The position numbers and the translations under genes were made by a program. The notes under the pieces were generated by a model. The model did no database searches and had not been told where the DNA came from. It saw only the letters and a program-made list of their open reading frames with translations. 64,000 nucleotides of DNA. Origin: an uncultured Gemmatimonadales bacterium. GTDB taxonomy: Bacteria; Gemmatimonadota; Gemmatimonadetes; Longimicrobiales; RSA9. Where the stretch lies: contig CAVUKA010000001.1 of assembly GCA_963741945.1 (NCBI GenBank), positions 1,056,001 through 1,120,000 of the forward strand, in the 5' to 3' direction. How positions within the stretch are numbered: the first letter of the stretch is position 1; each line of letters begins with the position of its first letter. This document shows positions 15,099 through 41,298 of this stretch, piece after piece.

Positions 15099-15361
15099 CG
15101 GGGCATCCTCGTGTAGACAACGCGAAAGAGGGAGAGGGCGAGCGTGCACCCGGCGCACTCGTGCGCCAGGTCATCGTCCTCCAGGGGCTCGAGCAGCACC
15201 TCCCGACCCACCGAGCGGTAGAGCGCCGCCATCTCCCCAAGACGGGGCGGGGCGCCGATGAAGCGTCGCGTCCAGCCGGCCCGCGCCAGGACCTCGTCGC
15301 GCTCCCGGACGCGCGCGCTGGCGGCCGGCCCGATGTCGAGCGCGGGCACCGGCGCGCTCAC
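15095..15361 (-). CDS. Small hypothetical CxxC protein inside the bcr operon (88 aa)
   Basis: GTGA and ATGA overlaps at both ends; GWTRRF…PRL.E…LY…CAGC…FRVVYTR. Confidence 0.7.
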   Translation of the reverse strand: MSAPVPALDIGPAASARVRERDEVLARAGWTRRFIGAPPRLGEMAALYRSVGREVLLEPLEDDDLAHECAGCTLALSLFRVVYTRMPR

Positions 15362-16179
15362 GCGGCCGCGGCCTCGGCGTCCTCGGCTTCGAGCTTCTCC
15401 AGCCGGCGCCGTGCGAGGATCGCGGCGCCGATTGCGCCGGTGTACTGGACCAGCGGCTCGGGCGGCACGTTGACGCCCTCCGCCAGGTGCTCGCGCATGA
15501 CGCGCACCATGGTGGGAAAGCGCATGATCCCGCCCACCAGCGTGAACTCGGGCTCCATCTGCACGCGCTTCATGAGCCGCACGCTCTTCTCGATGAGCGA
15601 CTCCATGGCGCCCAGCATGATCTCGCCGGGCTGGCTCCCGTTGCTCACGTGATTGATCACCTCCGACTCGGCGAACACCGCGCAAACTCCGCTGATGGGC
15701 ACCGACGCCTGCGCGCCCTGGACCAGCATCCCGATCTCCTCGAGGCCATAGCCGAGATAGCGGGCCGTCTTCTCCAGGAACGCGCCCGTGCCCGCGGCGC
15801 ACTTGTCGTTCAGACGGAACGAGCGGACCTTCCCCGCGTCATCGACGCGCATCGCCTTCATCGTCTGCCCGCCAATGTCCAGCACCGTGCGGGTCGACGG
15901 AAAGAACCAGCGCGTGCCCCACGACTGCGCCGTCAGGTCGGTGGCCTGGACGTCCCGGAACGCCACCTGGTTGCGGCCGTAGCCGGTGGTGGCGGTGTAG
16001 ACCACGTCCGCGGCCGTCACGCCCGCCTCGGCCAGCGCGGAATCCAGCGCCGCGCGCGCCGCCGCTTCCAGGCGATATCCGGTCGGCACCATGCTCCGGG
16101 CCAGCAGCTGGCCGGCCTCGTCCAGGATCGCGGCCTTCGTGTACGTCGAGCCGACGTCCACTCCCACCGTGCAGGTCAT
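15358..16179 (-). CDS. bcrD: Benzoyl-CoA reductase ATPase/activase subunit, BcrD-like
   Basis: ASKHA motifs [40 protein letters not shown]. Confidence 0.78.
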
Positions 16180-17042
16180 GCCACCTCCCGCGCTGTGGCG
16201 CAGCCCCGGCCCGCATCGCCGTCCGCGGCCGCACCGGTGAGATCCCCCGCCGGGATGAGCGCTCCCTCCGCCCGCTCGAGCGCGAACAGGGCCGCGCCCA
16301 GAGCGCCGATGAAGTGGGACTCGGCCCCCACGTTCATCTCCGTGCCGAGCAGCTCGTTCAGCACGTGCACCATGGCCGGGTTCTTCGTCACCCCGCCCGT
16401 GAAGGTCACTTCCTCCTCCACGCCCACCCGCTTGAGGAGACCGAACGAGCGCTTGGCGATGGACTGATGCACGCCCAGCAGGATGTCCTCGAGCTTCCGG
16501 CCGCGCGCCAGCCACGACAGCACTTCCGACTCCGCGAATACGGTGCACGTGGTGCTGATCGGCACCGGCCGCCGGCCCCGGAGCGCCGTGGGCCCGAGGT
16601 CCGCCAGGTCCAGCTCCAGCGCCGCCGCCGCCGACTGGAGGAAGCGGCCGGTGCCCGCCGAGCACTTGTCGTTCATGCAGAAGTCCAGCACCTGGCCGCC
16701 GGCCTGCACCCGGATCGCCTTGGTGTCCTGGCCACCCATGTCCAGCACGGTCCGCGTGCCGGGGAACATCTCCGCCGCCCCGCGGGCGTGGCACACGATC
16801 TCCGTCACCTGCGTGTCGCCGAACTCCACCTTGTAGCGGCCGTACCCCGTGCCGATGACGAAGTCCACGTCGCGCCGCGCGAGCCCGGCCTCGGCCAGCG
16901 CCAGCGCGAACGCGTTCTCCGCGGCCTCCACCACGTTTGCGCCCGTGTCGATGAGGCTGCGCCCGACGATGCGACGGTCGCCGTCCACCACCACGGCCTT
17001 GGTCTGGGTCGAACCGACATCCACTCCGCCCGCGTGTCTCAT
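16176..17042 (-). CDS. bcrA: Benzoyl-CoA reductase ATPase/activase subunit, short BcrA/BzdQ-like
   Basis: [51 protein letters not shown]. Confidence 0.78.
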
Positions 17043-18370
17043 GCGACCTCCTCCCTTGCGGCGGCACCGCTGCCGGCGATCGCGCCGTTCATCCGCAGCT
17101 TGCGACTCTCCAGCCCCTCGAAGAACGCGTCGATGCGGTTCTTCAGCTGCGCTTCCGAGACCACGCGCTTGTCCATCATGTCGCTCTCGATGTAGAGGGC
17201 CAGGACATCGCGCTCGGCCAGGAGCACCCGCCGGCTGTCGGCCAGGCTCGTCGAGACCGTGCGGCAGCTCTTCACGGGGTGGTAGACCACGCCGTCCGCG
17301 CCGTAGCGGTCCACCGCTTCCAGGAGCAGCCGGTCCTGGAAGAGCATGGCGTCGGTGGCCCGGCGCACGCTGCGCAGGACTCCTTCGGCCAGGCTCACCA
17401 GCGGGCGCGACAGGTCATACTCGAAATCCAGGTCCAGGCCGCCGGAGGCGAACCACAGGTAGGTGGAGCTCACGAATGCGCCGCCCCACTCGCTGAACAT
17501 TGCGTGGAAGCGCGAGAAGATCGGATAGCAGGGGACGCCCACGAAGATCAGGCGGTGCCGCTCGGGCGTCTCACCCAGGGCCCCGCGGCCCTCGGCCAGG
17601 CGCAGCTCCAGCTCCTCGGCCAGGTCGCGGAAGTAGTCCGCGCCCTCCTGCGTGCCGCGCAGCGCGTTCGCCACACCCAGGTACATGGTGCCCTCGAGCA
17701 CCGCGTCGAACGCGGCGGGGGCGCGGGCGTTCAGCGCCAGCACGCGGCGGTAGTGCCGGCCCATCTCGTTGGCGTGGCCCAGCACCTCGCGAAAGCGGTC
17801 GATGTCGAAGCGCCTGCCCGTGAGCGACTCCAGCACCTGGATGAGCTCCCGCAGCTGGTTCTCCACGTACGAGAGGTCCGCGGCCGAGCCGACGCCCGTG
17901 GCGCTGTCCAGGACCGAGCGCGACTGCGGCACGTCCACCGTGAAGACCGGGACGTCGTACATCCGCTCCCAGATCTCGGCCCATTTGAGGTAGGTGTTGC
18001 ACGCGTTCGTCAGCACCGCGATGGACGGTGGCGGGATCATTCCGCGCGGGTGCTCGCCGTTGCGGCGCTGGAGCGCATAGTCGGCCTTCACGTAGCCGCA
18101 CACGTCCGGGGAGAAGCCTTCGTCCTCGGCCTGGCTCAGGTACCCGTCCGAGACCTTCTTCACCGCCGTCTGGAGCGAGTTGATCTCGGGGAAGACCGTG
18201 TGCAGGCCGAACGTGCGCAGGATCTCCGTGAGACTCCCCATGACGAAGACATACGCGGCCTGCTCCCCGGCCGAGTGGGCGTGCGTGAGCTCCTCATACC
18301 ACCGGTCGAACAGCTGCCTGCCGTGCCGGAAGGCGCGTCCGTGGATGAGCTCCGAAGTCACTGGATTCAT
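17039..18370 (-). CDS. bcrB: Benzoyl-CoA reductase subunit B (2-hydroxyacyl-CoA dehydratase family)
   Basis: [35 protein letters not shown]…KNRIDAFF resemble Thauera BcrB. Confidence 0.85.
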
Positions 18371-18378
18371 GGGCCGCC

Positions 18379-19572
18379 TCATTCGAACAGCAGGTTCTCG
18401 ACGAAGGTCTCGAGCTGGATCTGCAGGTGATCGTACGCCGTCATGTTCTCCTCGAACTCCGTCACGAAGTACGGGATCTTCTCCCGGTCCAGCGCCTGTG
18501 AGTACGCCACCTGCTCGTCCAGGCCGGGCTCGCACATCTTGGCCGCGGCCACGATCGCCGCCTCCGCCGAGGCCGCGCGGATGCGGCGAAGCAGCATCTG
18601 CTCCTTCGGCTTCCGGAGGTCGTGCTGGACCGGGCTGTACGACGATCGCTCCAGGTACGCCTCCGCCAGCCTGCCCACGGGATCCCCCGCCAGATCCACG
18701 TCCTCGGTGATCCAGCGCAGGCCGATCAGGAGGTCGTCATCCACCACGTAGACGAACTGCGCGATGGAGCGGAGCAGGTCGAGCGGCGGCTGCTCGCAGA
18801 AGCCGCCCTCGAACACCACGCGCATGCGGTCCTGCCGGCGGGCGTCACGCTCCCGGATGCGGGGAATGAGCGCGCGCAGGAGGTGATTGTGCTCCTCGCG
18901 CGTGACCAGCCCCGCCAGCGCCACCAGCGCGTACGCCTCGTCCACCGGCAACCGCCACGGCTCCTCCCGCTTGATGGTGTAGAGCTCCCGCAGCAGACGA
19001 CGATTCTCATTGAACACTGCGATGGCATCGCGGATCTCGTCGTCGCCCACGGTGCGGCCGACCACCGCTTCGATCTCGACCAGCACGCGTCGGTACTCCG
19101 CGGTCAGGAACTCGGCCGAGAAGCGGGAGTTGGGGTTCTGCGGGAAGTACAGGATCTGCGCGGGCGTGCTCACGTTCCGCTCCCAGATCCCGGCCAGGTT
19201 GCGAGCCACGTCGCAGATCGGGTGGGTGACGAACAGATCCGGCACCAGCGTCCCGTTCATGGCCAGCTCGAGCGTGGTCCGCGGAATGGAGCAGATGGCG
19301 GAGCCGAAGCGAGAATCGGCTTCCCGGCGATCCACCTGGCCGCCGCGGATCTTCACCGGGAGCATCCCCGCCGCGTGGGCCAGCTCTTCGGGGAAGTAGA
19401 CCTGGAAATGGCCCAGCACCTTGCCGCCACCCTCCCGCCACTTCCGCACGGTTGGGTACTCGACGTCCTCCACCACCTCGCGGCAGCGGGCCAGCACGTG
19501 GTCGAGCGGGTCCGAGAGATCGATGTCCAGCAACCGCTCGGGGGGTGGGATCTCGCGCCTGGGTGTCGCCAT
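18379..19572 (-). CDS. bcrC: Benzoyl-CoA reductase subunit C
   Basis: ARC, HAAGMLP, ICSIPR, ICDVARNL, NENR, EPW, EEHN, FCEQPPL, VDDD resemble Thauera BcrC. Confidence 0.88.
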   Translation of the reverse strand: MATPRREIPPPERLLDIDLSDPLDHVLARCREVVEDVEYPTVRKWREGGGKVLGHFQVYFPEELAHAAGMLPVKIRGGQVDRREADSRFGSAICSIPRTTLELAMNGTLVPDLFVTHPICDVARNLAGIWERNVSTPAQILYFPQNPNSRFSAEFLTAEYRRVLVEIEAVVGRTVGDDEIRDAIAVFNENRRLLRELYTIKREEPWRLPVDEAYALVALAGLVTREEHNHLLRALIPRIRERDARRQDRMRVVFEGGFCEQPPLDLLRSIAQFVYVVDDDLLIGLRWITEDVDLAGDPVGRLAEAYLERSSYSPVQHDLRKPKEQMLLRRIRAASAEAAIVAAAKMCEPGLDEQVAYSQALDREKIPYFVTEFEENMTAYDHLQIQLETFVENLLFE

Positions 19573-19573
19573 G

Positions 19574-20341
19574 CTATGCGTCGCTCCAGACCGGCGCGCG
19601 CTTCTCCATGAACGCCGCCAGTCCCTCGTGAGGATCGTGCAGGGCCATCAGCTCGTCGAGGTACAGCGCGTCCGCACCCGCCAGCGCCGCCGACAGCGGG
19701 CGGTCCAGCCCCTCGAGCACGGCGCGCTTGGCCAGCGCCAGCACCGGCCGACTGAGCCCGGCGAGCGGCGCCACGTACTCGCTCACGGCCTCGCCGAACG
19801 CGTCCGCCGGGAGCACGGCCGTGACCAGACCCATCACCTGCGCCTCCTCAGCCAGGATGGTCCGGCCGGTCAGCACCAGGTCCAGCGCCCGCTGCACCCC
19901 CACCCGGCGGGGGAGGAGCGCGGCCGCCGCCGGGGGAAAGACGCCGAGGCGGATCTCCGGCTGGCCAAGCTTGGCGCCGGAACGCGCCAGGACCACGTCG
20001 CAGGCCAGCGCCAGCTCGAGGCCGCCCCCCAGCGCGGCGCCGTTCAGCGCCGCCACGACAGGGAGGTCCACCGCCAGCAGCGCACGGATGGCGCGGGAGA
20101 ACGACTCGATCATCCCCCCCACGCGCTCGGTGGTGTGGTCTGCCACGTCCACCCCGGCGCAGAACGCGCTGCCCTCGCCCGTGAGCACCACTGCGCGTGT
20201 CGCCGGATCCGCATTTGCGACCCCCACTGCCCCGGCCAGCTCGTCCAGCATCTCCGTGGTCAGGACGTTCAGCGGAGGACGGTTCAGGACCACGCGGGCG
20301 ATTGCGGTGCCGAAGTCGACGCGAAGGTGCCGGTACGCCAC
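19574..20341 (-). CDS. dch: Enoyl-CoA hydratase, likely cyclohexa-1,5-diene-1-carbonyl-CoA hydratase
   Basis: GVDVADH, LGGGLEL, GQPEIRLGVFPP, YLDELM…EGL.AF.EKR; position in bcr operon. Confidence 0.82.
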   Translation of the reverse strand: MAYRHLRVDFGTAIARVVLNRPPLNVLTTEMLDELAGAVGVANADPATRAVVLTGEGSAFCAGVDVADHTTERVGGMIESFSRAIRALLAVDLPVVAALNGAALGGGLELALACDVVLARSGAKLGQPEIRLGVFPPAAAALLPRRVGVQRALDLVLTGRTILAEEAQVMGLVTAVLPADAFGEAVSEYVAPLAGLSRPVLALAKRAVLEGLDRPLSAALAGADALYLDELMALHDPHEGLAAFMEKRAPVWSDA

Positions 20342-20342
20342 T

Positions 20343-21452
20343 TCACCCTCCCGCCGTGGCTTTCGCGGCATCCCCGGTTTCGACCGTCTCCACGTCGACT
20401 CCGTCGGTCCCCAGCCCGGCCCCGCACGCGCCACAGAACTGGAAATCGGCTGGAATCCCTTCCGCGCCGCACGCCGGACAGTCACGGTTCGGCGCGCCCC
20501 ACAGGAATTCGCTGGAGCCCCCGCTCGCCGCGCGCTCGCGGAGCTCCATGTAGCGCGGCTTCCGCTTCTGAACGAAAGCGCGCATTCCCTCCCACGGCTC
20601 GAGGGAGGAGTAGTGGAGCGCCAGCCAGTCGCCCGCATGGCCCACGGTCTGGCTCCAGCTGAGCTCCTTCCAGAAGTTCACCTGCTGCTTCGTGTAACGC
20701 GTGCACTCCGGGAACTGCTGCAGCAGCACCTGAACCAGCTCGTCCACCGCCTCGTCCAGCTTCTCCAGCGAGATCGCGTAGCCGTCCTCTGCGTTCTGTG
20801 CCCTCGCGATCTGTTCCGGCGACGCCCCGTCGATGAACGCTCCGTCCTTCACCACGCTCGGCACGACCCGGTTCACCAGCCCCCAGTCCAGGCATTGCCG
20901 CGGCGGGATCCGGCCGTTGACCATGAGGATCTCGCGGGCGCGGCGGTCGCCGACCAGGAGCGGAAGCCACTGCGTGGCACCGCCGGCCGCCACGCTCCCG
21001 ACGCGCGTCCCTACCTGGCCGATGTAGGCGTGCTCGGCCATCACGGCGAGGTCGCACGCCATCTGGCTCTCGTTGCCTCCGCCGACGGCCATGCCGTTCA
21101 GGCGCGCGATCGTGGGCTTCCCCAGTTGAACGATGCTTTCGATATACTCCCGGAACAGCCGCATGTATTTCCAGTAGTCTCGCGGCCGTTGCGTGTACTC
21201 GGCCTCGTACTCCTTCACGTCGCCGCCCGTGCAGAACGCCTTCGTCCCCGCGCCCGTGTAGACCACCACCCCCACCCCATCGTCGAACGCCGCGTCATGG
21301 AACGCGGTGGTCAGCTCACGCAGCGCTTCCGTGGAGTACGCGTTGTAGTTGTGGGGACGGTTCAGCGTGACGCGCGCCACCCAGTCGGCCTTCTCGTACC
21401 GGATCTCCCGGAAGTCGTACGACTCGGCGGGACGCGGCTCAAACTTCGGCAT
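20343..21452 (-). CDS. oah: 6-oxocyclohex-1-ene-1-carbonyl-CoA hydrolase (ring-opening) with C-terminal Zn ribbon
   Basis: YNAY, AFCTGGDVKEY, YMRLF, LDEAV…FPEC, WLAL; RBS AAGGAG; C-terminal CPACG…FCGACG. Confidence 0.85.
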   Translation of the reverse strand: MPKFEPRPAESYDFREIRYEKADWVARVTLNRPHNYNAYSTEALRELTTAFHDAAFDDGVGVVVYTGAGTKAFCTGGDVKEYEAEYTQRPRDYWKYMRLFREYIESIVQLGKPTIARLNGMAVGGGNESQMACDLAVMAEHAYIGQVGTRVGSVAAGGATQWLPLLVGDRRAREILMVNGRIPPRQCLDWGLVNRVVPSVVKDGAFIDGASPEQIARAQNAEDGYAISLEKLDEAVDELVQVLLQQFPECTRYTKQQVNFWKELSWSQTVGHAGDWLALHYSSLEPWEGMRAFVQKRKPRYMELRERAASGGSSEFLWGAPNRDCPACGAEGIPADFQFCGACGAGLGTDGVDVETVETGDAAKATAGG

Positions 21453-21503
21453 GCTCGGCTCCTTGTCAGACCATGGCACGACGGCCACCTGGGAAAACGA
21501 AAG

Positions 21504-22370
21504 TCACGAAACGGACGACCGCTCCTCACCCGCCACACCCACGGCGGATCCGGCGGCTTCGAAGCGCGGCTCCACGAACCGGTCGGCCGGCTCCGCCAAC
21601 AGCTCGTGGTAATAGTTGAACAGGCTCAGCGCGCACTCCCCCGCCCAGTCCTCCGGCTGCAACGCCCCGGGGAGGAACGGGTCCTGGAGCGGGAACTCCC
21701 GGTACTCGTGCACCAGCCGGAAGCGCCGGACGTACGCGTCCCGCGGCTCGATCGACCCCGGACCCTCCTCCTTCAGCGCCACGCACGCGTCCAGATGACG
21801 CTCTATGAACGCCTCGTAGCGCGCGTTCAGCCCGGCCAGGTCCCAGCAGCGGCCCACCAGCTCACGGGCGTCGCCAAACCCCAGGTGCGGTCCGCGGAAC
21901 ACCTCCACGTACTCCCTCACTTCCAGATCGTCCGCGATCTCACGCACAGGGCCGACGACATCGTGCGGCGTAATCCACAGCCCGTTCCCCAGCGACCCGA
22001 ACCCGAGCCACTCCAGGCGAACCCGCAGGCGGTCCCGCTGCCCCCGCTGCTCCTCCGGAATCGAATACGCCAGCAGCGTCCACTCCCCATCCCACCCCTC
22101 CGCCCCACGCGGCCGGTAGATCCGCGTCTCCCCTTCCTCCAGCAGCCGTCGGCCCCGACCCGTCAGCGCATAGTAGCTGCGACGACCCTCGCGCTCCGCT
22201 TCCAGCCACCCCTTCCCCACCATCCGCGACAGCACCGTCCGCACGTTCGTCTCGCTCAGCCCCAGCGGCTCCAGCAGCCCGATCAGGCTCCCCACCCACA
22301 CCGGTGATGGCCGGTGCAGCAGGAAATCGCCGAACAGCGTGAACACCAGGTCCTGGGGTCGTGCGGCCAT
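21504..22370 (-). CDS. paaX: PaaX-family transcriptional regulator
   Basis: FTLFGD, RTVLSRM..KGWL, YYALT, RIY, WDGEW, L.WLGFG, WDL, QDPFLP.ALQP.DW.G. Confidence 0.9.
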   Translation of the reverse strand: MAARPQDLVFTLFGDFLLHRPSPVWVGSLIGLLEPLGLSETNVRTVLSRMVGKGWLEAEREGRRSYYALTGRGRRLLEEGETRIYRPRGAEGWDGEWTLLAYSIPEEQRGQRDRLRVRLEWLGFGSLGNGLWITPHDVVGPVREIADDLEVREYVEVFRGPHLGFGDARELVGRCWDLAGLNARYEAFIERHLDACVALKEEGPGSIEPRDAYVRRFRLVHEYREFPLQDPFLPGALQPEDWAGECALSLFNYYHELLAEPADRFVEPRFEAAGSAVGVAGEERSSVS

Positions 22371-22440
22371 CTCTTGTCACAAATGGTTAACGATCGTAGT
22401 CTTGCTGCAATACATTGCCGGCCCGACGCCGGTGTCAAGG
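22371..22440 (-). promoter_or_regulatory. Putative promoter/operator region between divergent paaX and maoC
   Basis: AT-rich patch; minus-strand TTGACA at 22433-22438 (no clean -10); palindromes TTGTCACAA (22374-22382), ACGATCGT (22390-22397), GCAATACATTGC (22407-22418). Confidence 0.5.
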
Positions 22441-22506
22441 GTCTTCATGCGGAGGCCCCGGGAACATCGGCGGACCGAGCGCCCTCGCGGATCCGGGAGG
22501 CGGACG

Positions 22507-22977
22507 ATGACGGAGGAATCCCTGACGTTCGATGACTTCGAGGTGGGGCGCACCTACCGGACGGAGAGCCGTGTGGTGACGCAGGCGGACGTGGAGGCGT
22601 TCGCGGCGGTGTCGGGGGATGCGAACCCGCTGCACCTGGACGAGGCGTACGCGGCGCAGACGGTGTTCGGCGGCCGGGTGGCGCACGGTGCGCTGGGGCT
22701 GGCGGTCGCGACGGGGCTGCTGAACCGGCGTGGGCTGACGCGGGGGACGTTGATCGCCTTTCTGGGGCTGACCTGGGACTTCGTCGCCCCGCTGGTGCCG
22801 GAGTCGGAGGTGCACGTGGCGCTGGAGGTATCATCGAAGCGGGTTTCGCGCCGCGCGGACCGGGGCGTGGTGGCCTTCTCGGCGGAGCTGCGGTCGGGCT
22901 CTGAAGTGATCCAGGCCGGGGAGCTCCGGTTCCTGGTGCGGCGGCGCGGAGCGGCCGGTGGCGTGGCGGGGACGTAG
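22507..22977 (+). CDS. MaoC-family (R)-specific enoyl-CoA hydratase/dehydratase
   Basis: FDDFEVG, FAAVSGDANPLHLD, FGGRVAHG; RBS GGAGG. Confidence 0.88.
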   Translation: MTEESLTFDDFEVGRTYRTESRVVTQADVEAFAAVSGDANPLHLDEAYAAQTVFGGRVAHGALGLAVATGLLNRRGLTRGTLIAFLGLTWDFVAPLVPESEVHVALEVSSKRVSRRADRGVVAFSAELRSGSEVIQAGELRFLVRRRGAAGGVAGT

Positions 22978-23029
22978 ACGTCCCTGCTCTCGCGCGGGCG
23001 GGCGCGCGGGTGCCCGCGGGCGAAACCCC

Positions 23030-23120
23030 TACGCGTCAAGGGGGGAAACTCCCGATACATGGCGCAGGTAAATCAGTGAATCCCCGATTGTACGGCTGAG
23101 CGTGCGGGGTAGCTTTTCAG
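23030..23120 (+). promoter_or_regulatory. Putative promoter/operator upstream of iorA fusion
   Basis: AT-richer intergenic stretch with CGATACATGG (23053-23062) and AATC-N11-GATT. Confidence 0.35.
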
Positions 23121-23164
23121 GTGCAGGGCGGGGACACCCGGGCAGCAACTCCGGAGCGAGCCGG

Positions 23165-26100
23165 ATGATGGATAAAGGGGCCGCAGCGCGGCCAGAGAGG
23201 CAGGAGCGCGCGTCGGCGGTGCGTGAAGCCGGCGGGGCATCCAGGGGGCGGCGCCTCCTGCTTTCGGGGAACCAGGCCATCGCCCGTGGGGCGTGGGAGG
23301 CGGGGGTGCGAGTGGGCGCAGGCTACCCCGGCACGCCGAGCACGGAGATCCTGGAAGCGCTGTCGCACCTGGATGGCGTCGACTGCGAGTGGTCGCCGAA
23401 CGAGAAGGTGGCGCTGGAAGTGGCCGTGGGCGCGTCGCTGGGGGGCGCGCGGGCGCTGGCCACGATGAAGCACGTGGGCGTGAACGTCGCCGCCGACCCG
23501 CTCTTCTCGGCCGCGTACATGGGTGTGAACGGCGGGCTCGTGGTCGTGAGTGCCGACGACCCCGGCATGCACTCGTCGCAGAACGAGCAGGACAACCGTC
23601 TATTCGCCCGCCACGCCCGGCTTCCGCTGCTGGAGCCGTCCACGCCGGCGGACGCGCGTCGGTTCACCACGGCGGCGTTCGCGGTCTCGGAGCGCTACGA
23701 CACGCCGGTGCTGCTGCGGACCACGACTCGCCTGAGTCACGGTACCGGCCCGGTCGAGGCGGGTGAGCGGGAAGCAGTGGGGCTGCGGGCATACCACAAG
23801 GACCGCCAGAAGAACGTGGTCCTCCCGGCGCACGGCCGCGTCCGCCACCGCTGGATCGAGGAGGAGCGGATGCCGGCGCTCGCCGCGGAAGCGGAGCGGT
23901 GGGCGGAAGCGGAGCCGGGCGACGGCGACGTCGCCTTCATCACCGCGGGCATTCCCTACCTGTACGTCCGGGAGGCCTTCCCGGCGGCCCCGGTGCTCCG
24001 CCTCGGGATGACGTATCCGCTCCCGGAGATCGCGGTCCGGCGGTTCGCGGAGGAGCACGCGGGGAAGCGGCTCTACGTGGTGGAGGAGCTGGAGCCGTTC
24101 CTGGAGGAGCAGATCCGGGCGCTCGGGCTGGCGCTGGAAGCGCGCACCTGGCCCCGGTACGGCGAGCTGACCGTGCGGCTCCTGCGTCGCGCGGCAGGGG
24201 CTCCCGAGGAGGGCACCGCGGAGGAGACGGCCGCGAACGCGAAGGGTGCGGTCGGTGATGCGCCCCCGGTGCTGCCGTCGCGACCGCCGGCGCTGTGCCC
24301 CGGGTGCGCCCATCGTGGCGTGTTCCACGCCCTGGGACGCATGGACGCCATCGTGAGCGGCGACATCGGCTGCTATACGCTGGGTGCGCTCGCGCCGCTG
24401 GACGCCATGGACGCGTGCATGAACATGGGGGCCTCCATCGGCATGGCGCATGGCATGGAGAAGGTGCTGCCGCCGGATGAAGGGAAGCGTGTGGTGAGCG
24501 TGATCGGCGACTCCACGTTCTACCATTCGGGCGTGACGGGACTGATGGACGTGGTCTACAACCGGGGCAAGGGGACGGTGGTGGTGCTGGACAACCGGAC
24601 CACGGCCATGACGGGGCATCAGGACCACCCGGGCACGGGCCACACGCTCGGCAACGCCGAAGCGCCGCGCATCGACATCGGCGGGATCGCGCGGGCGGTG
24701 GGCGTGGACGACGTGCGCAGCGTGGACCCGTACGATCTCCTGGGCGCGTGGCGCACGCTGGACGACGCGACCCGCACGCAGGCGCCCTCGGTGGTGGTGG
24801 CCGGGAAGCCGTGCGTGCTGAAGGAGAAGGTCTCGTTCGGCGATCCGGTGTTCCTGGACGCGGACCGGTGCACCGAGTGCTTCGCGTGCACGCGGCTGGG
24901 GTGCCCGGCCATCGAGGAGAGCGATGGGCGTCTCGCGGTGAACGACCTGCTCTGCAACGGCTGCACGCTGTGCCAGCAGGTCTGCGCCGACTGCAACGCG
25001 GGGATCGACGTCTCGCTCATGCTCGAGCTGGTGGACCAGGGGCGGCTCTCGGACGCGCTCGAGCTGGTGCTGCGCTCGAACCCGCTGCCCGCCGTCTCCG
25101 CGCGCGTCTGTCCGCACCCCTGCGACCACGACGTGAACGCCCTCGGGTTCCCGCAGGCGGCTACCTATGCGGCCCGGCACCCGTCGCTCGTGGAGCGCTT
25201 CCCCGACGGCGCCAGGAAGATTTCGGTGCGTGCGGTGGAGCAGTTCCTGGGCGACTGGGCCATCGAGAACTACCCGGCCGACGCGCTTTCCCCCGCGGAG
25301 GAGATGGGCCGCTCCGTGGCGGTGGTCGGATCCGGGCCGGCCGGCCTGTCGGCGGCGTGGCACCTCCGGCGCAAGGGGTGGCGCGTCACCGTGTTCGAAG
25401 CCGACGAAGCCCCGGGCGGCATGCTGCGGAGCGGGATCCCCCCGTTCCGGCTGGCGCGGGAAGTACTGGACGCAGAGCTGGGCCGGTTCACCGCTATCGG
25501 CATCGAGTTCCGCACGGCGGCCAGGATCGGTCGGGACATCACGGTGGCAGAGCTGTCCGAGGAGCATGACGCCGTCATCATCGCAGTGGGCCGGCACGCG
25601 CCGCGGACCATCCCGCTGGAAGGGGCCGAGGCGTACGGCTCGTCCGTGCTGGGCGGCCTGGAATTCCTGCGGCGTTTCAACGCAGGCGAGGCGGTGCCGC
25701 TGGGTCGCCGTGTCACGGTGATCGGAGGGGGGAACACGGCCATCGACTGCGCGCGCGCCGCGCGCCGGCTCGGTGCCACCGTGGACGTGGTGTACCGGCG
25801 GACAGAAGCCGAGATGCCGGCCATCCCCGACGAGGTGGAGGAAGCGCGGGAGGAAGGCGTGACGTTCCGGTTCCAGAGGAGCCCCGTGCGGGCGCTGGGA
25901 GAGGGCGGTCGCCTGACGTCGCTGGAAACCATCGCCATGGCGCAGGGCGACCCGGACGAGAGCGGTCGGCGGCGCCCGGACCCGGTGGCGGAGAGCGAGG
26001 AGGTCGAGCCCTGCGACGCGGTGATCCTGGCCGTGGGCGAGGACACCGACCTGGCGTTGCTGGCAGGGAGCGGCATCCGGGCGGGCGACCGGATCGACGT

Positions 26101-26254
26101 CAACTTCGCCGGTGCCACATCGGTGCCCGGCGTGTTCGCGTGCGGTGATGCGGCGTTCGGCCACGGCACGGTGACGCAGGCGGTGGCCACGGGCCGCCGC
26201 GCGGCCGAGCTGGCGAGCAACCCGTTGAAGAAAGGGGCGACCCGTGAGCGATAA
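23165..26254 (+). CDS. iorA: Indolepyruvate:ferredoxin oxidoreductase alpha subunit fused to a GltD/BzdV-like FAD/NADPH oxidoreductase
   Basis: GNQAIARG, YPGTPSTE, NEKVA, MKHVG.NVAAD, SSQNEQD, RPP.LCPGC.H, GDIGCY, GDSTF.HSG, two ferredoxin Cys motifs; then NPLPA..RVCP, GSGPAG, GGGNTAID, YRR. Confidence 0.9.
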   Translation: MMDKGAAARPERQERASAVREAGGASRGRRLLLSGNQAIARGAWEAGVRVGAGYPGTPSTEILEALSHLDGVDCEWSPNEKVALEVAVGASLGGARALATMKHVGVNVAADPLFSAAYMGVNGGLVVVSADDPGMHSSQNEQDNRLFARHARLPLLEPSTPADARRFTTAAFAVSERYDTPVLLRTTTRLSHGTGPVEAGEREAVGLRAYHKDRQKNVVLPAHGRVRHRWIEEERMPALAAEAERWAEAEPGDGDVAFITAGIPYLYVREAFPAAPVLRLGMTYPLPEIAVRRFAEEHAGKRLYVVEELEPFLEEQIRALGLALEARTWPRYGELTVRLLRRAAGAPEEGTAEETAANAKGAVGDAPPVLPSRPPALCPGCAHRGVFHALGRMDAIVSGDIGCYTLGALAPLDAMDACMNMGASIGMAHGMEKVLPPDEGKRVVSVIGDSTFYHSGVTGLMDVVYNRGKGTVVVLDNRTTAMTGHQDHPGTGHTLGNAEAPRIDIGGIARAVGVDDVRSVDPYDLLGAWRTLDDATRTQAPSVVVAGKPCVLKEKVSFGDPVFLDADRCTECFACTRLGCPAIEESDGRLAVNDLLCNGCTLCQQVCADCNAGIDVSLMLELVDQGRLSDALELVLRSNPLPAVSARVCPHPCDHDVNALGFPQAATYAARHPSLVERFPDGARKISVRAVEQFLGDWAIENYPADALSPAEEMGRSVAVVGSGPAGLSAAWHLRRKGWRVTVFEADEAPGGMLRSGIPPFRLAREVLDAELGRFTAIGIEFRTAARIGRDITVAELSEEHDAVIIAVGRHAPRTIPLEGAEAYGSSVLGGLEFLRRFNAGEAVPLGRRVTVIGGGNTAIDCARAARRLGATVDVVYRRTEAEMPAIPDEVEEAREEGVTFRFQRSPVRALGEGGRLTSLETIAMAQGDPDESGRRRPDPVAESEEVEPCDAVILAVGEDTDLALLAGSGIRAGDRIDVNFAGATSVPGVFACGDAAFGHGTVTQAVATGRRAAELASNPLKKGATRER

Positions 26255-26981
26255 GACGAGGGAGTCGGGATCCGGGGACCCGCAGGTCGCGGCCACGGCC
26301 GTGGAAGAAGCCGGCGCGGACGCCGCAGCTCGCTCCGAGCGGGTGTCCGACCGCAGCGGCGGCCTCCCCCCCACCGGCCACGGCGATGTGATGAACATCG
26401 TGCTTGCGGGCGTTGGCGGTCAGGGCTCCGTCCTCGCCACCCGGGTGCTGGCCACGGCGGCGGCGATCGCGGGGCACCAGGTCGTGACCTCGGAAGTGCA
26501 CGGCATGTCGCAGCGCGGCGGAACGGTTCTGACCACGGTGCGCTTCGGCGACTCGGTTCTGTCCTCCTCCATCCCGGAGGGCGAAGCCGACTTCCTGGTG
26601 GCCTTCGAGCGCCTCGAGGCCGCGCGGCACCTGTCCCTGGTGGAACCCGGCGGGATCGTGCTGGTGAACGACCAGCGCATCGCGCCGAGCATCGAATCGC
26701 TGAAGACCGCCGGCTACCCCCGCGACCTCGAGCCGAGTGCGGAGGCGCGCGGCATCACGCTGCTGACCTTCCCGGCGCTGGCGCTGGCCAGGGAGCTGGG
26801 AAACGAGAAGCTGTCCAGCACGATCATGCTGGGCGCGCTGTCGAACTACCTGTTCATTGCCCGGGAGCAGTGGCTGGAAGCGATCCGGCGGACGGTCCCG
26901 CCGAGGACGGTGGAAGCGAACGAAGCCGCGTTCGACACGGGCGCCGAGTGGATGGTGGGCCCCGCGGCGTTCAGCTTCTGA
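26244..26981 (+). CDS. iorB: Indolepyruvate oxidoreductase beta subunit
   Basis: AGVGGQG, SEVHGMSQRGG.V, ELGN, MLGAL; start may be at MNIVLAG. Confidence 0.92.
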   Translation: MSDKTRESGSGDPQVAATAVEEAGADAAARSERVSDRSGGLPPTGHGDVMNIVLAGVGGQGSVLATRVLATAAAIAGHQVVTSEVHGMSQRGGTVLTTVRFGDSVLSSSIPEGEADFLVAFERLEAARHLSLVEPGGIVLVNDQRIAPSIESLKTAGYPRDLEPSAEARGITLLTFPALALARELGNEKLSSTIMLGALSNYLFIAREQWLEAIRRTVPPRTVEANEAAFDTGAEWMVGPAAFSF

Positions 26982-28077
26982 CCCTGGAGATCGGCGCCTC
27001 GTAGTCCCTCGCCCTCTCCATCCCGGCCAGCACCCGCGCGGCCCCTTCGGCCAGCGCCCGCAGCTCGTCTTCGCCGGGGTAGACCCGGACGTCCGCGATC
27101 CAGGTCAGCGCATCCGCGAGCCCGCCCGTCAGCGCCCGGCTGCGCGCCATTCCACCAGTGAGGAGAACGGCGTCGACGCGGCCGCCGAGCGCGGCGGCCA
27201 TGGCGCCGATCTCCTTGCGGATCTGGTAGGACATGGCGAGGAGAACGACGCGAGCATGATCGTCGCCGGCGGCGATGCGCGCTTCCACCTCCCTGAGGTC
27301 CCGGGTGCCGAGATAGGACACGAGACCGCCCTCGCGGAAGAGCCGGCGGTCCGCCTCGGCCATGGTCCAATCCTCCTCCAGGGCGCGCTCCATGAGGCGC
27401 ATCACCGGCACGCTGCCGGCCCGCTCGGTGGAAAACGGCCCTTCCTCCCGGGGGTTGTTCACGTCGACCATGCGCCCGCCCCGGTGTGCCGACACGCTCA
27501 CGCCGCTCCCGAGATGGGCCACCACCAGGCGCAGCTCGTCGTACGAACGACCCACCTCGGCGGCGTAGCGCTTCGCCACGGCCTTGGTGTTGAGCGCGTG
27601 GGAGAGGCAGACGCGATCCAGCCCCGCCAGTCCCGAAAGCCGGGCCACGTCATCCCACTCGTCCACGCTCACGGGGTCCACGATGAATGCCGGGCACCCG
27701 GCCTCGTCGGCCAGTCGGCGAGCCAGGAACGCGCCCAGATTGGACGCGTGCTCGCCCCGCCCCGCCGCGCGCAGGTCCTCCAACATGGCATCGGTCACGC
27801 GGTACGTCCCGCTGGCCAGCGGGCGCAGCAGTCCACCCCGCCCCACCACCGCGTCCATGTCGCCAGGTTCCACGCCGTGCCGTGACAGGGCCCCGCGCAC
27901 CGCATCCAGGCGCATGTCCTGCTGCTCCAGGATCGGCCGCCCACGGAACCCCGCCAGCACCGCGTCATCGTGGGTGGCCGCGTGCTCGAACACCACCGCG
28001 TCGCCGGAGAAGACCGCCAGCTTCGTGCTGGTCGACCCGGGATTGAGAGCCAGAATCAAGAACTCCTCCGCTGCCAT
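26971..28077 (-). CDS. buk: Butyrate (branched/short-chain acyl) kinase
   Basis: NPGSTSTK, GRGGLL, HASNLG, IVDPVSVDE, HALN.KAV, AHLGSG, EGPFS.ERAG, YPGEDE. Confidence 0.93.
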   Translation of the reverse strand: MAAEEFLILALNPGSTSTKLAVFSGDAVVFEHAATHDDAVLAGFRGRPILEQQDMRLDAVRGALSRHGVEPGDMDAVVGRGGLLRPLASGTYRVTDAMLEDLRAAGRGEHASNLGAFLARRLADEAGCPAFIVDPVSVDEWDDVARLSGLAGLDRVCLSHALNTKAVAKRYAAEVGRSYDELRLVVAHLGSGVSVSAHRGGRMVDVNNPREEGPFSTERAGSVPVMRLMERALEEDWTMAEADRRLFREGGLVSYLGTRDLREVEARIAAGDDHARVVLLAMSYQIRKEIGAMAAALGGRVDAVLLTGGMARSRALTGGLADALTWIADVRVYPGEDELRALAEGAARVLAGMERARDYEAPISRVRS

Positions 28078-28108
28078 GACGCGTCCCCGCCTCCCTCGCA
28101 TGCCCGCC

Positions 28109-29038
28109 TCATCCCGCCCGTCCGACCAGTGCACCCAGGGCGATGGAGTGCAGCTTGTCTTCCGCGCTTTCAACGCGCGACGGGATCAGGATCGGCACCG
28201 CGGCGCCCGTGACCACGTGGGCCGTGATCGAACCGCCGAAGTACTTGACCCCTTTGCCCAGGATGTTCCCCGCATCGATCCCGGGGGTGACCATGATGTC
28301 GGCGGCCCCCGCCACCGGACCCGTGATCCCCTTCGCCCGGGCTGCCGAAGGGAGCAGCGCGTTGTCGAGGGCCAGCGGCCCGGCGACGTCGGCGTTCGGC
28401 AGCGCCCGCGCAGCCCACTCGGCGGTGTCGCGGGCGAGCACGGTGGAGGGGACGGCATCGGTGACCACTTCGGTGGCGCTGAGGAGAGCCACGCGCGGCC
28501 GCTCGTAGCCGAGGGCGCGGAACACCGCCACGGCGTTGGCCACGATCTCCCGCAGCGCCGCCGCATCCGGGGCGGGCGTGATCCCGCCGTCCGTGACCCC
28601 CACCAGCCGCACTGAGCCGGAGAGCGCGTCCTCGTAGAGGAGAACATCGGAGAGCAGTCGGCCCGTCCGCAGCCCGCGCTCCCGACGGAGCGCCGCCTTC
28701 AGGAGCTGGTCCGTCCGCAGCGCACCTTTGAGCAGGATGCCCACCTCTCGCGTCACGGCCAGCTCCACCGCCGCGGCCGCGGCCTCCTCCGGAGTTGCAG
28801 CCCTCACCCAGCGGGCGTGGTCCAGCCCGCGGATCGACCCGGCCTCGATGACCGCGCGGATCCGATCCGCATCGCCCACCAGGACGGGCGAGGCGATCCC
28901 CTCCGTCGCGGCCGCCCCGACCGCGGCCAGCGCCGACGCGCTGTCAGCGGCCACTACCGCCACGGAAACGGGCCGGGATTCCCTGGCCCGTGCCCGGAGC
29001 TCAGCGAAGGAACGGATCGGTGCTGTGAGCGTCGGCAT
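28109..29038 (-). CDS. ptb: Phosphate butyryl/acyltransferase
   Basis: LLKG, TDGG, LSATE, PST, GPLALDNA, KGI..PVAG.ADI, GNILGK, SR.ES. Confidence 0.9.
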   Translation of the reverse strand: MPTLTAPIRSFAELRARARESRPVSVAVVAADSASALAAVGAAATEGIASPVLVGDADRIRAVIEAGSIRGLDHARWVRAATPEEAAAAAVELAVTREVGILLKGALRTDQLLKAALRRERGLRTGRLLSDVLLYEDALSGSVRLVGVTDGGITPAPDAAALREIVANAVAVFRALGYERPRVALLSATEVVTDAVPSTVLARDTAEWAARALPNADVAGPLALDNALLPSAARAKGITGPVAGAADIMVTPGIDAGNILGKGVKYFGGSITAHVVTGAAVPILIPSRVESAEDKLHSIALGALVGRAG

Positions 29039-35579: not shown

Positions 35580-35795
35580 GCAGGGCAAGATGCACTGCCG
35601 GCCTCTGGACTGCCACGATCCCGTGTCCCGCGACCCCGCGCGACCCAGATCCCGGCGTTTGCCGGCGCACGGCGCCCGCCCGCTCCGCGATCCACCCCGC
35701 CCGCGCGGCGCAACGACATGGTTGGAAATGAACGGCGGGCACTGTATCCTGGGGTCGGATAGCCAGCCCCTGTCTCTCCGTCGGAGCCCCTCAAC

Positions 35796-41219: not shown

Positions 41220-41298
41220 CCGGGCGCGCACGCCCCGCGGCGGCGGCGAGATCCGCTACCGCCCTCTCCGTTCACACGCCCCCCGGGGGTAGCACGCC

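Follow-up and report, generated by a model that had tools for sequence, protein, structure and literature searches.

The pyruvate:NADP+ oxidoreductase of Euglena and Cryptosporidium is a PFOR fused to a CPR-like flavoprotein, the 2-oxoglutarate:NADP+ oxidoreductase of Azoarcus evansii delivers OFOR electrons to the pyridine nucleotide through an attached flavoprotein, and the phenylglyoxylate:NAD+ oxidoreductase PadEFGHI consists of five separate subunits. Stand-alone NfnB-like ferredoxin:NADP+ oxidoreductases (Fnors) have been described as reducing NADP+ with PFOR-reduced ferredoxin, and the GltD-like module of StnC as a non-bifurcating entry of NADPH to an Fe-S wire (PMC12221290 and PMC10482914, respectively). 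In the literature searched, we found neither a published description of an IorA-GltD fusion nor biochemical data on any member of this group.

Architecture of the IorA-GltD fusion

In the 64 kb stretch of DNA analyzed here (the window), positions 23102..26254 (+) form one open frame in the ORF listing, with neither a stop nor a frameshift at the IorA/GltD junction, and the fusion gene (23165..26254, +) encodes 1029 aa plus stop. The ATG at 23165 is the likely start because GGAG lies 11 nt upstream and the N-terminus is alignable with that of homologue P0001, which is 87% identical to the fusion across 100% of the length. A preliminary description of this region had presented the entire span 23165-26981 (3817 nt) as the fusion; the span does hold the fusion but is not one frame, given that it also contains iorB in another frame, consistent with the two-subunit enzyme proposed there.

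The IorA catalytic core (23288..24796, +; Pfam POR_N, residues 42-205, and TPP_enzyme_C, 400-544), which contains the GDSTF motif (448-452) and the cluster-A cysteines, is followed by the IorA ferredoxin-like domain (24845..24988, +; residues 561-608; Fer4_10, 563-607), delimited by conservation and profile overlap. Next come the remains of the N-terminal Fe-S domain of GltD (24989..25264, +; residues 609-700), recognized by conservation and by alignment to 5jca_L and 8oh5_C, in which the Fer4_20 match (residues 600-655) is confined to positions 24-83 of the 113 in the profile and CPHPCDHDV occupies residues 649-657, and the FAD and NADPH Rossmann domains (25313..26194, +; Pyr_redox_2, 717-1010; also supported by Foldseek and conservation), with GSGPAG (722-727), GGGNTAID (854-861) and YRR (877-879). 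All the motifs named in the preliminary description are present, the ferredoxin cysteines at the coordinates given. Among NCBIfam models, IOR_alpha (TIGR03336) covers residues 31-608 with 647.5 bits against a curated cut-off of 650.9, the N-terminal 608 residues matching profile positions 3-591 of 595, and the GltD-type models extend from residue 592-608 to about 1021 (PRK12771, 359.7 bits; TIGR01316, 597-1015).

Ordinary IorAs (91 sequences) end at a median of 11 residues past the C607 column, type A proteins, as we denote this architecture, extend 414-438 residues beyond it, and the two modules are joined without a linker. In the AF2 model (pLDDT 88.6, pTM 0.84), 10-residue blocks across residues 551-700 have pLDDT values of 86-97, the junction being modeled as an ordered portion of one fold, and the C-terminal ~440 residues superpose on NfnL, NfnB and GltD with target-normalized TM scores of 0.77-0.79 (Foldseek).

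An assembly or frameshift chimera, or a dead GltD remnant following the loss of Fe-S cysteines, would fit the absence of one GltD cysteine (position 657) and the match to Fer4_20 only from position 24. Such an origin is, however, exceedingly improbable and is contradicted by the spread of homologues, given that 98 of the 120 best database matches listed, from many independent sources, have the same architecture at >=960 aa, by the remaining ligands and nucleotide motifs, which are invariant or nearly so, and by the confident and compact AF2 model. The gene is a genuine fusion, complete in length and conserved, and the type A architecture is under selection.

Iron-sulfur ligands and the flavin module

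Fifteen cysteines are conserved in each of the 74 type A sequences. Cys378, Cys381, Cys403 and Cys550, invariant in 24/24 sequences of alignment A1 and 74/74 of alignment A2, are presumably the ligands of the TPP-proximal cluster, by analogy with PFOR. The ferredoxin-like domain contributes motif I (C569/572/575/580-P) and motif II (C597/600/603/607), together at nt 24869-24985. Residues 597-608 belong both to the IOR_alpha match (31-608) and to the matches of the GltD-type profiles, which begin at 592-597, an overlap that puts IorA motif II in the position of GltD motif 1. Downstream, Cys610, an extra cysteine, as well as Cys649 and Cys653, are invariant (74/74), Glu692 is present in 73 of the 74 sequences, position 657 is never Cys (0/74), and a type-A-specific insert of ~22 aa occupies residues 662-683. 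The preliminary description had regarded several GltD Fe-S cysteines as lost. One is truly missing, but motif II stands in the place of GltD motif 1 and Cys610 has been added, hence the apparent loss, which is a family-wide rewiring rather than decay.

By residue count on the alignments, Glu692 corresponds to E126 of 5jca_L and K170 of 8oh5_C; Glu126 of PfNfnI-B has been described as a cluster ligand (PMC12221290), and ligand roles have been assigned for the StnC module (PMC10482914). Type A thus keeps the Glu typical of bifurcating NfnB, whereas type B, a second kind of fusion discussed below, mostly has Lys, as in non-bifurcating StnC. Fifteen cysteines and one glutamate would suffice for four [4Fe-4S] clusters, against five if the modules were simply concatenated, although non-Cys ligands could add a cluster.

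In the nucleotide-binding part, Y877 and R878 are found in 74/74 type A sequences and R879 in 73/74. R879 aligns with Arg325 of PfNfnI-B, which, according to PMC12221290, contacts NADP(H), and R762, the equivalent of NfnB Arg201, is likewise kept in 73 of 74. The same source gives Arg333 and a neighboring nfnA as criteria specific to NfnB. The Arg333-equivalent position, 887, is Arg in none of the 74 sequences and Ile in 67 of them. The scanned ORFs of the window include no nfnA-like gene, and none was seen beside L001, the sole additional type A locus whose gene context was available. By these marks, the type A fusion does not resemble a bifurcating NfnB.

An Nfn-like confurcating or bifurcating enzyme, in which the FAD would merge a low-potential electron from the oxoacid with a higher-potential electron from an NfnA-like or other partner encoded elsewhere, yielding extra NADPH or, in reverse, driving reductive carboxylation, is conceivable because type A keeps the Glu(Cys)3-type position, as in NfnB; the conserved Arg201 equivalent and the nearest solved relatives, which are subunits of the bifurcating Nfn-ABC, Stn and NfnI complexes, point the same way. 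We nevertheless deem such a role improbable in view of the missing arginine and nfnA, and also because Glu ligation is reported for non-bifurcating GltS (PMC8097209) and conservation of Arg201 for non-bifurcating Fnors (PMC12221290).

The explanation that we favor, with moderate confidence, is that the fusion and IorB form a two-subunit indolepyruvate-type 2-oxoacid oxidoreductase with a built-in electron acceptor. The cofactor sites expected of a 2-oxoacid:NADP+ oxidoreductase partnered by IorB, as predicted in the preliminary description, are present, and the electrons probably pass straight to NADP+ rather than to free ferredoxin. The two electrons released at TPP would travel singly down a wire of four [4Fe-4S] clusters. 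From the TPP-proximal cluster (C378/381/403/550) they would pass to the ferredoxin domain, which would hold two clusters, the second of them doubling as the 'distal' one of the GltD-like module, and then to a Glu(Cys)3 cluster beside the flavin; the FAD would gather both electrons and reduce NADP+ to NADPH.

Gene neighborhood and predicted pathway

The iorB gene (26391..26981, +), encoding a POR gamma-like subunit (PF01558, 142.5 bits; best NCBIfam matches to IorB models, 202.5 bits, cut-off 237), is distinct from the fusion gene and read in another frame. Its start is likely ATG 26391 rather than GTG 26244, which would overlap the fusion stop by 11 nt. At L001, IorB begins MSVTNIVLAGVGGQG directly 3' of the fusion. 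Convergent with iorB is a gene for a butyrate-kinase-family acyl kinase (26971..28173, -; NF002834, 468.6 bits, cut-off 222; TIGR02707, 440.7 bits), upstream of which lies a phosphate butyryl/acyltransferase (Ptb-like) gene (28109..29038, -; PF01515; ptb models at ~224-232 bits, below the cut-offs). Type A synteny was compared for two loci, the window and L001 (64% identity), and convergent ptb-buk follows iorB in both, at the same positions. The pair is not specific to the fusion, given that ptb and buk each occur beside 8 of 79 other ior loci, about a tenth.

An OFOR, a phosphotransacylase and a kinase together constitute an established route from arylpyruvate to arylacetate and ATP, as described in PMC13285125. 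Family and context suggest an arylpyruvate as the substrate (indolepyruvate, phenylpyruvate or hydroxyphenylpyruvate), although it may also be another 2-oxoacid. This substrate would be decarboxylated on TPP, the acyl group transferred to CoA, and the acyl-CoA converted by the Ptb-like enzyme to the acyl phosphate and by the Buk-like kinase to arylacetate and ATP.

The opposite direction, in which arylacetyl-CoA would be carboxylated reductively at the expense of NADPH, giving arylpyruvate for the synthesis of aromatic amino acids, seems very unlikely. OFOR reactions are reversible in principle and methanogens use IOR anabolically; however, NADPH, at about -320 mV, could not drive a couple near -500 mV unless the reaction were coupled, and a catabolic context is provided by ptb-buk, peptidases of families S46 and S9, and a PaaX repressor.

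The latter, of a phenylacetyl-CoA-responsive family, is encoded at 21504..22370 (-; Pfam PaaX, PaaX_M and PaaX_C; TIGR02277, 251.4 bits against 264.55; like those of IOR_alpha, IorB and Ptb, this match falls slightly or clearly under the NCBIfam cut-off), 795 nt upstream of the fusion. The gene is divergent from the fusion and from a MaoC-like (R)-hydratase gene assigned by profile matches (22339..22977, +), which is followed by a G+C-rich palindrome (22966-23023). A motif scan of the 187-nt gap before the fusion found GATACA-N29-TGTA (23054..23092, +), the only match in the window, where 0.02 would be expected (2 of 100 shuffles gave at least one); it may be a PaaX-type operator. PaaX heads a minus-strand BCR-like operon of seven genes (oah-like, dch-like, bcrC-, bcrB-, bcrA- and bcrD-like, and had-like; 14076..21488, -), for all of which benzoyl-CoA-pathway equivalogs are the best or near-best NCBIfam matches, all below the cut-offs.

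This cluster lies ~1.7 kb from the fusion, and the preliminary description had cast the latter as an electron hub for benzoyl-CoA reductase. In such a three-way redox junction, low-potential electrons from arylpyruvate would pass through the shared surface cluster to an external ferredoxin or directly to a BcrAD-like ATPase module and on to the reductase, with the flavin serving as a valve through which electrons could overflow to, or enter from, NADP(H). The absence from the window of a canonical 2x[4Fe-4S] ferredoxin gene (CxxCxxCxxxC[PA]) would fit, and enzymes that reduce ferredoxin are part of BCR clusters in other organisms, among them KorAB of Thauera and the Nfn-like AadN of R. palustris (PMC9973337) as well as, in Azoarcus evansii, an NADP-dependent oxidoreductase (PMC8163825). 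The adjacency is seen in one genome only, however; L001 lacks BCR, PaaX and MaoC genes, no BcrA, BcrB or BcrC homologues were found in the 80 fetched ior loci (of unequal flanks and with only 1 type A), and type A is common in Bipolaricaulota. These observations argue against the hub, which we regard as unlikely; the BCR-type cluster is better viewed as neighboring context of the candidate fusion system.

Distribution and relationships to known systems

Among the matches listed, type A is found in Longimicrobiales/Gemmatimonadota and Bipolaricaulota. A second search retrieved type B fusions in all of its 120 listed matches (~1100-1190 aa, typically ~1140 aa), from MAGs of Deltaproteobacteria, Myxococcota, Phycisphaerales and Acidobacteria; one member, P0134 (1384 aa), carries IorB as well. 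In the IorA-core tree, all 25 type A sequences group together in a single clade (support 0.954), which is surrounded by IorAs of ~600 aa. Type B has the same three building blocks and database names ('IorA', 'FAD-dependent oxidoreductase') but differs in the placement of the GltD module between the TPP and ferredoxin domains, in the retention by this module of its own cysteine motifs, including CxxxCxxxC, and in Lys rather than Glu at the ligand position (10 of 11 rows in A1). Type B has a different gene order and its members lie apart from type A in the tree, which suggests that IOR was fused to the GltD module on two or more occasions.

Compared with IorAB of the P. furiosus type (TIGR03336/TIGR03334), the fusion system retains an end-to-end match to IOR_alpha, the TPP motif, all 12 cluster cysteines and a separate IorB, but has ~420 extra residues with FAD and NADPH sites, as well as Cys610, and its predicted acceptor is NADP+ instead of free ferredoxin. 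With the three NAD(P)+-linked enzymes introduced at the outset it shares the functional principle of an OFOR whose electrons reach a pyridine nucleotide by way of an attached flavoprotein, although it belongs to another OFOR subfamily and has another flavoprotein module; the proposal that the fusion compresses PadEFGHI is not borne out, the sole match to a Pad model being that of IorB to PadE (36 bits, cut-off 300).

The best matches to residues ~600-1020 are the GltD-like modules of NfnB/NfnL, StnC and Nfn-ABC (5JCA, 4YLF, 8OH5, 9BOV, 9N5U; E 5e-85 to 2e-66; target-normalized TM 0.78-0.79 for 5JCA/4YLF), but the fusion lacks Arg333 and the NfnA, HydBC-like and NuoG-like partner domains, and has an OFOR as its partner. 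The [4Fe-4S]/FAD Fnor of the Cac_0764 type, as described in PMC12221290, resembles the fusion module in the Fer4_20 and Pyr_redox_2 fold, the Glu ligand, the Arg201 and Arg325 equivalents, the lack of Arg333 and of an nfnA neighbor, and the predicted chemistry, the transfer of low-potential Fe-S electrons to NADP+. That enzyme is free-standing, with two clusters of its own, and takes electrons from soluble ferredoxin, whereas the fusion module has neither a motif 1 of its own nor the final cysteine of motif 2, both having been lost, and is joined to its donor. If the favored explanation is correct, IOR, ferredoxin and an NfnB-like non-bifurcating Fnor are combined here in a single polypeptide.

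Architecture of the fused protein and its predicted iron-sulfur ligands

The plus strand of the window (G+C content about 70%) carries from 23102 to 26254 one uninterrupted open reading frame in the ORF listing, in which a single frame runs through the IorA and GltD parts without a stop or a frameshift at their junction. ATG 23165 is preferred as the start of the fusion gene (23165-26254, plus strand), because GGAG lies 11 nt upstream and the resulting N-terminus (MMDKGAAARPERQERA...) can be aligned with that of an 87%-identical homologue, P0001; the product has 1029 aa. Its Pfam domains are POR_N (residues 42-205), TPP_enzyme_C (400-544), Fer4_10 (563-607), Fer4_20 (600-655, matching only profile positions 24-83 of 113) and Pyr_redox_2 (717-1010). 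Among the NCBIfam models, IOR_alpha (TIGR03336) covers residues 31-608 (profile positions 3-591 of 595; 647.5 bits, cut-off 650.9), and the models of the GltD type extend from residues 592-608 to about residue 1021 (PRK12771 with 359.7 bits; TIGR01316 at 597-1015), residues 597-608 being covered by both the IOR and the GltD profiles. The FAD and NADPH Rossmann motifs GxGxxG, GGGNTAxD and YRR are all present (Pfam and the type A alignment described below). Every motif quoted for this protein in the preliminary description lies where it had been placed, and the fusion proposed there stands; the span given there also holds iorB, a second gene in another frame.

IorA and IorB are a textbook pair of subunits. 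The iorB ORF opens with GTG 26244 and matches PF01558 with 142.5 bits, and its best NCBIfam matches are IorB models (202.5 bits, cut-off 237). The IorB of L001, the other fusion locus with visible context, starts MSVTNIVLAGVGGQG, which indicates ATG 26391 as the start of iorB in the window. The stretch 26255-26390 is either a 136-nt spacer or, with GTG 26244 as the start, a 49-residue Ala/Gly/Ser-rich N-terminal extension of IorB; L001 has neither, its iorB beginning right behind the stop codon of the fusion gene.

In an alignment of the window protein with 73 sequences of the same architecture (type A, that is, IorA followed by a C-terminal GltD/NfnB-like module), picked for spread, 15 cysteines are invariant in 74 of 74: C378, C381, C403, C550, C569, C572, C575, C580, C597, C600, C603, C607, C610, C649 and C653. 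E692 is kept in 73 of the 74, and beyond the IorA part the putative cluster ligands are C610, C649, C653 and E692 only. The slot of the third cysteine in the GltD motif CPxxxxCExxC (Cys111 of NfnI-B by residue count) is occupied by V657, and this position is Cys in none of the 74 sequences. The loss of GltD cysteines suspected in the preliminary description is therefore real, but it is a conserved rewiring. Among 91 ordinary IorAs shorter than 760 aa, each of the eight cysteines of the ferredoxin domain is present in 86-90 sequences, and the chains end at a median of 11 residues past the C607 column (n = 91); type A proteins run 414-438 residues past that column, without a linker and with the added C610.

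These patterns suggest that ferredoxin motif II of IorA (C597/600/603/607) occupies the place of GltD motif 1 (CxxCxxxxCxxxC), and that the GltD-like module lacks the cysteine that would complete a distal cluster of its own. C607 and C610 would be apportioned to two clusters, the first of the ferredoxin domain and the proximal one with the Glu ligand. With 15 cysteines and one glutamate, the 16 ligands suffice for four clusters, and four [4Fe-4S] clusters are predicted from this count and from homology, where plain concatenation would give five. The merged cluster would be a natural case of two iron-sulfur modules fused at a single cluster-binding motif, one ferredoxin motif, plus one extra cysteine, serving two parent folds.

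The AF2 model built with the same alignment has a mean pLDDT of 88.6 and a pTM of 0.84, and its only long low-confidence stretches are residues 1-26 and 347-373. Blocks of 10 residues over 551-700 have pLDDT values of 86-97, which means that in the model the junction is ordered and belongs to a single body. The top PDB chains in Foldseek are those of Nfn-ABC, StnC, NfnL/NfnB, Xfn, GltD and DPD (target-normalised TM 0.77-0.79 for chains of about 460 aa), and the best PDB sequence matches are 9N5U_A, 9BOV_A, 5JCA_L, 8OH5_C and 4YLF_B. In the PDB sequence search no solved structure is close to the IorA part, the best match being 1YD7_A (E = 8.6e-15), which matches the N-terminal domain only.

Two fusion architectures and their distribution

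A word-indexed protein search yielded 7305 proteins at E <= 0.001, and among the best 120 of these 7305, 98 have the type A architecture (called by motif order and a length of at least 960 aa), with 49-87% identity. Named type A members come from MAGs of Longimicrobiales/Gemmatimonadota and Bipolaricaulota/Acetothermia, and their database labels are 'FAD-dependent oxidoreductase' or 'IorA'; judged by these taxa, the window probably derives from a Longimicrobiales relative. At the same threshold (E <= 0.001), an exhaustive search of 50%-identity representatives yielded 25,489 proteins, the best 150 being used; a second architecture, type B, of about 1100-1190 aa and about 35-44% identity, is found among the matches listed. 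Here the GltD-like module follows the TPP domain and precedes the ferredoxin domain, which is C-terminal (alignment of 24 sequences), and in one protein of 1384 aa, P0134, IorB is fused on as well. Type B proteins derive from MAGs of Deltaproteobacteria, Myxococcota, Polyangia, Phycisphaerales and Acidobacteria, and with one of them, P0122, as the query, 120 of the 120 matches listed are full-length fusions. Among P0122-P0378, type B is a more diverse IorA-GltD architecture than type A. Four proteins considered as stand-alone 'Fd + GltD' forms (P0153, P0155, P0253 and P0118) start within the fusion sequence and resemble truncated ORFs rather than split forms.

The tree input comprised 153 sequences, namely the window protein, 24 hand-picked of the 98 type A proteins, and, from the search of representatives, the matches P0121-P0267 with at least 560 aa, excluding the proteins of this range that have a GltD-type motif without the TPP motif. 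Four rows with less than 80% coverage of the IorA core were dropped, leaving 149 tips for FastTree (residues 30-556). Classes were set by length, since MAFFT places the ferredoxin domain at the C-terminus of type B in the columns of the IorA ferredoxin domain. All 25 type A tips group in a single clade (local support 0.954) that lies within IorAs of about 600 aa, and 30 long non-A tips are found elsewhere in the tree, in 15 pure clades; type B is not monophyletic. Given the single type A clade and the position of the long non-A tips outside it, at least two separate fusions of IOR with the GltD-like module appear to have taken place.

The fusion is neither an artefact nor rare, and the distribution of such fusions is wide and unrecognised. 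No description of an IorA-GltD/NfnB fusion was found in the literature searched, which consisted largely of non-subscription journals. The accessible part of a 2026 review of PFOR diversity contains 'glutamate synthase' 0 times, and its passages with 'fused' or 'fusion' concern subunit fusions only; 'indolepyruvate' and 'oxoacid' occur 0 times in the accessible part of a 2019 review of Nfn distribution.

Gene neighbourhood in the window and in other ior loci

On the minus strand, paaX (21504-22370; TIGR02277 251.4 bits, cut-off 264.55) heads a cluster of the benzoyl-CoA reductase (BCR) type (14076-21488) that consists of oah-like, dch-like, bcrC-like and bcrB-like genes, two BcrAD/BadFG-type ATPase genes and a had-like gene; both paaX and the cluster point away from the fusion. 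The best or near-best NCBIfam match of each of the seven cluster genes is a benzoyl-CoA pathway equivalog, with every score below its cut-off (for the class I BCR models, BcrC 273 vs 421, BcrB 204 vs 487 and Oah 203 vs 464). Upstream of the fusion lies a gene for a MaoC-like hydratase (22339-22977, plus strand), and a buk-like gene (26971-28173, minus strand; NF002834 468.6 bits) and a ptb-like gene (28109-29038, minus strand) are convergent with the fusion-iorB pair. The MaoC-like hydratase and the Ptb-like transferase both match PRK08190, 'bifunctional enoyl-CoA hydratase/phosphate acetyltransferase', and hence the two activities are fused in other bacteria. Elsewhere in the window are peptidases S46 and S9, a Glu/Leu/Phe/Val-type dehydrogenase and other genes, among them a signalling block (34365-42165) with a 609-aa Ser/Thr kinase (minus strand) divergent from, and overlapping in its ORF with, a 1807-aa protein (plus strand) of two kinase domains and PD40 beta-propeller repeats, followed by a PP2C phosphatase gene.

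The 187-nt gap before the fusion contains GATACA-N29-TGTA (23054-23092), the sole match in the window, with 0.02 expected; the pattern follows a presumed PaaX operator consensus with GATACA, and the match may be an operator of this type. A G+C-rich palindrome (22966-23023) directly follows the stop codon of the maoC-like gene, and the motif comes next, in a locally A+T-richer stretch; given this arrangement, the fusion may have its own regulated promoter. A promoter and terminator scan of 22000-27300 gave nothing above shuffles.

A genome scan with patterns of the IorA N-terminus matched at least 601 stretches, of which 80 loci were compared. The only type A locus among these 80 is L001, from a Longimicrobiales MAG (64% identity), so the comparison of context for type A covers two loci, the window and L001. 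Behind the fusion in L001 come iorB and then convergent buk and ptb, as in the window; upstream are a peptidase S9 gene and a 6-phosphogluconate-dehydrogenase-like gene, and BCR, PaaX and MaoC genes are not present. In tblastn searches with the window neighbours (E <= 1e-15) against the 80 loci, which have unequal flanks and include 79 ordinary iorA loci, IorB is found adjacent in 78, Buk in 9 and Ptb in 9 (L001 counted), and BcrA, BcrB, BcrC, PaaX and MaoC in 0. As nearly all of these loci (79 of 80) carry an ordinary iorA, the ptb-buk link is recurrent for ior genes generally, and it is kept in both type A loci; the BCR link is seen only in the window, among the loci compared.

Two loci from Actinomycetota/Dormiibacterota-type MAGs that were considered as fusions (L014:12566-15103 and L044:11295-13983) each encode an ordinary IorA and, behind it, the alpha subunit of a second OFOR: iorA is closely followed by the genes of this multi-subunit enzyme (alpha, beta, gamma), and this adjacency, with iorB matched there too, explains the misleadingly long tblastn matches. 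In an ordinary iorA locus of a Bacillota MAG, a separate GltD-like gene (L041:282-1388), about 7.6 kb upstream of iorA and 32% identical to the C-terminal part of the fusion, might be an unfused counterpart.

The ferredoxin motif CxxCxxCxxxC[PA], taken as this strict pattern only, is found nowhere outside the fusion in all six frames of the 64 kb, so that the BCR-like cluster has no obvious ferredoxin gene nearby; nor does the window contain a PadBCD/PadEFGHI-like gene set to bring phenylacetyl-CoA to the ring reductase. The preliminary description cast the fusion as a possible hub that feeds electrons to the adjacent BCR, a role that the comparison of loci does not support and that is possible but unlikely in this genome.

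Probable electron acceptor and substrate, and relation to known systems

Counted on HMMER alignments to solved structures, E692 corresponds to Glu126 of Pyrococcus furiosus NfnI-B (5JCA_L) and to Lys170 of StnC (8OH5_C), R762 to NfnB Arg201 and StnC Arg239, R879 to NfnI-B Arg325, and I887 to NfnI-B Arg333. The residue roles for the NfnB/StnC comparison are taken from the accessible parts of PMC12221290 and PMC10482914, according to which the cluster next to the flavin has Glu126 as its differentiated ligand, and Arg325 is in contact with NADP(H). The bifurcating NfnB is told apart from the non-bifurcating ferredoxin:NADP+ oxidoreductases (Fnors) of the Cac_0764 type by Arg333, by its long N-terminus and by the nfnA gene upstream (PMC12221290, accessible part).

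An NfnB-type, bifurcating role of the type A fusion would fit the glutamate at the ligand position, where 10 of 11 type B rows in the 24-sequence alignment have Lys, not Glu, as does the non-bifurcating StnC. However, glutamate synthase also has Glu ligation (PMC8097209, accessible part), and Arg201 is conserved in Fnors too (PMC12221290, accessible part). The equivalent of Arg333 is Arg in 0 of the 74 type A sequences and Ile in 67; the genes directly upstream are maoC-like and paaX, with no nfnA found, and NfnA/PyrK-type domains were not seen in the scanned window ORFs or next to the L001 fusion. Stand-alone NfnB-like Fnors reduce NADP+ from ferredoxin held reduced by PFOR (PMC12221290, accessible part), and a one-protein fusion would hold the same three-part chain as this PFOR-ferredoxin-Fnor assay.

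The fusion is probably best explained as an NADP+-linked two-subunit arylpyruvate oxidoreductase, and the preliminary interpretation is partly supported. The IOR family assignment, together with the upstream regulator of the PaaX (phenylacetyl-CoA-responsive) family, favours arylpyruvates as substrates and phenylacetyl-CoA as product and inducer. In Clostridium scatologenes, conversion of 4-hydroxyphenylpyruvate to 4-hydroxyphenylacetate with ATP gain by an OFOR, a phosphotransacylase and a kinase has been demonstrated (PMC13285125, accessible part). In a very unlikely extension, the protein would be a three-port redox node, with its shared surface [4Fe-4S] cluster as the link between NADP(H), the oxidation of arylpyruvate and an external acceptor of low potential. 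This acceptor would here be the BCR-like ring reductase, which depends on ATP, and the flavin together with the Glu-ligated cluster of the NfnB type would allow confurcation or bifurcation; a Gemmatimonadota relative would thereby meet the cost of dearomatisation directly from the oxidation of aromatic amino acids.

If the assignment as an NADP+-linked oxidoreductase is correct, oxygen-sensitive 2-oxoacid:ferredoxin chemistry could take place in bacteria without a soluble ferredoxin pool, low-potential electrons being funnelled to NADPH inside one protein. Reconstructions of amino-acid catabolism and redox balance would change for Longimicrobiales, Bipolaricaulota and many type B carriers, in whose genomes such genes are now named 'IorA' or 'FAD-dependent oxidoreductase', and the protein would offer engineers a compact building block, free of ferredoxin, for oxoacid oxidation that yields NADPH.

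Among known systems, the five-subunit phenylglyoxylate:NAD+ oxidoreductase PadEFGHI is not matched: the only match is that of IorB to PadE (36 bits, cut-off 300), and Pad models are absent among the matches listed for the fusion (25 of 83 NCBIfam models). For IorAB, the indolepyruvate:ferredoxin oxidoreductase, all alpha-subunit domains are seen in the fusion, with an IOR_alpha score just under the cut-off. The twelve cysteines that would bind three [4Fe-4S] clusters are shared with IorAB, but the attached flavoprotein speaks for an acceptor other than the free ferredoxin of IorAB. The GltD-like module of the fusion has no N-terminal domain of its own with two [4Fe-4S] clusters (seven Cys and one Glu/Gln/Lys) of the kind present in GltD/NfnB-like proteins. 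It shares the lack of nfnA and of Arg333 with the Cac_0764-type Fnor, which is free-standing and has two clusters of its own, whereas the module of the fusion is neither free-standing nor complete; the module is predicted to work like this Fnor, yet is not a member of that group. The fusion probably belongs with the pyridine-nucleotide-linked 2-oxoacid oxidoreductases, and its structural twist would be the shared cluster-binding motif.
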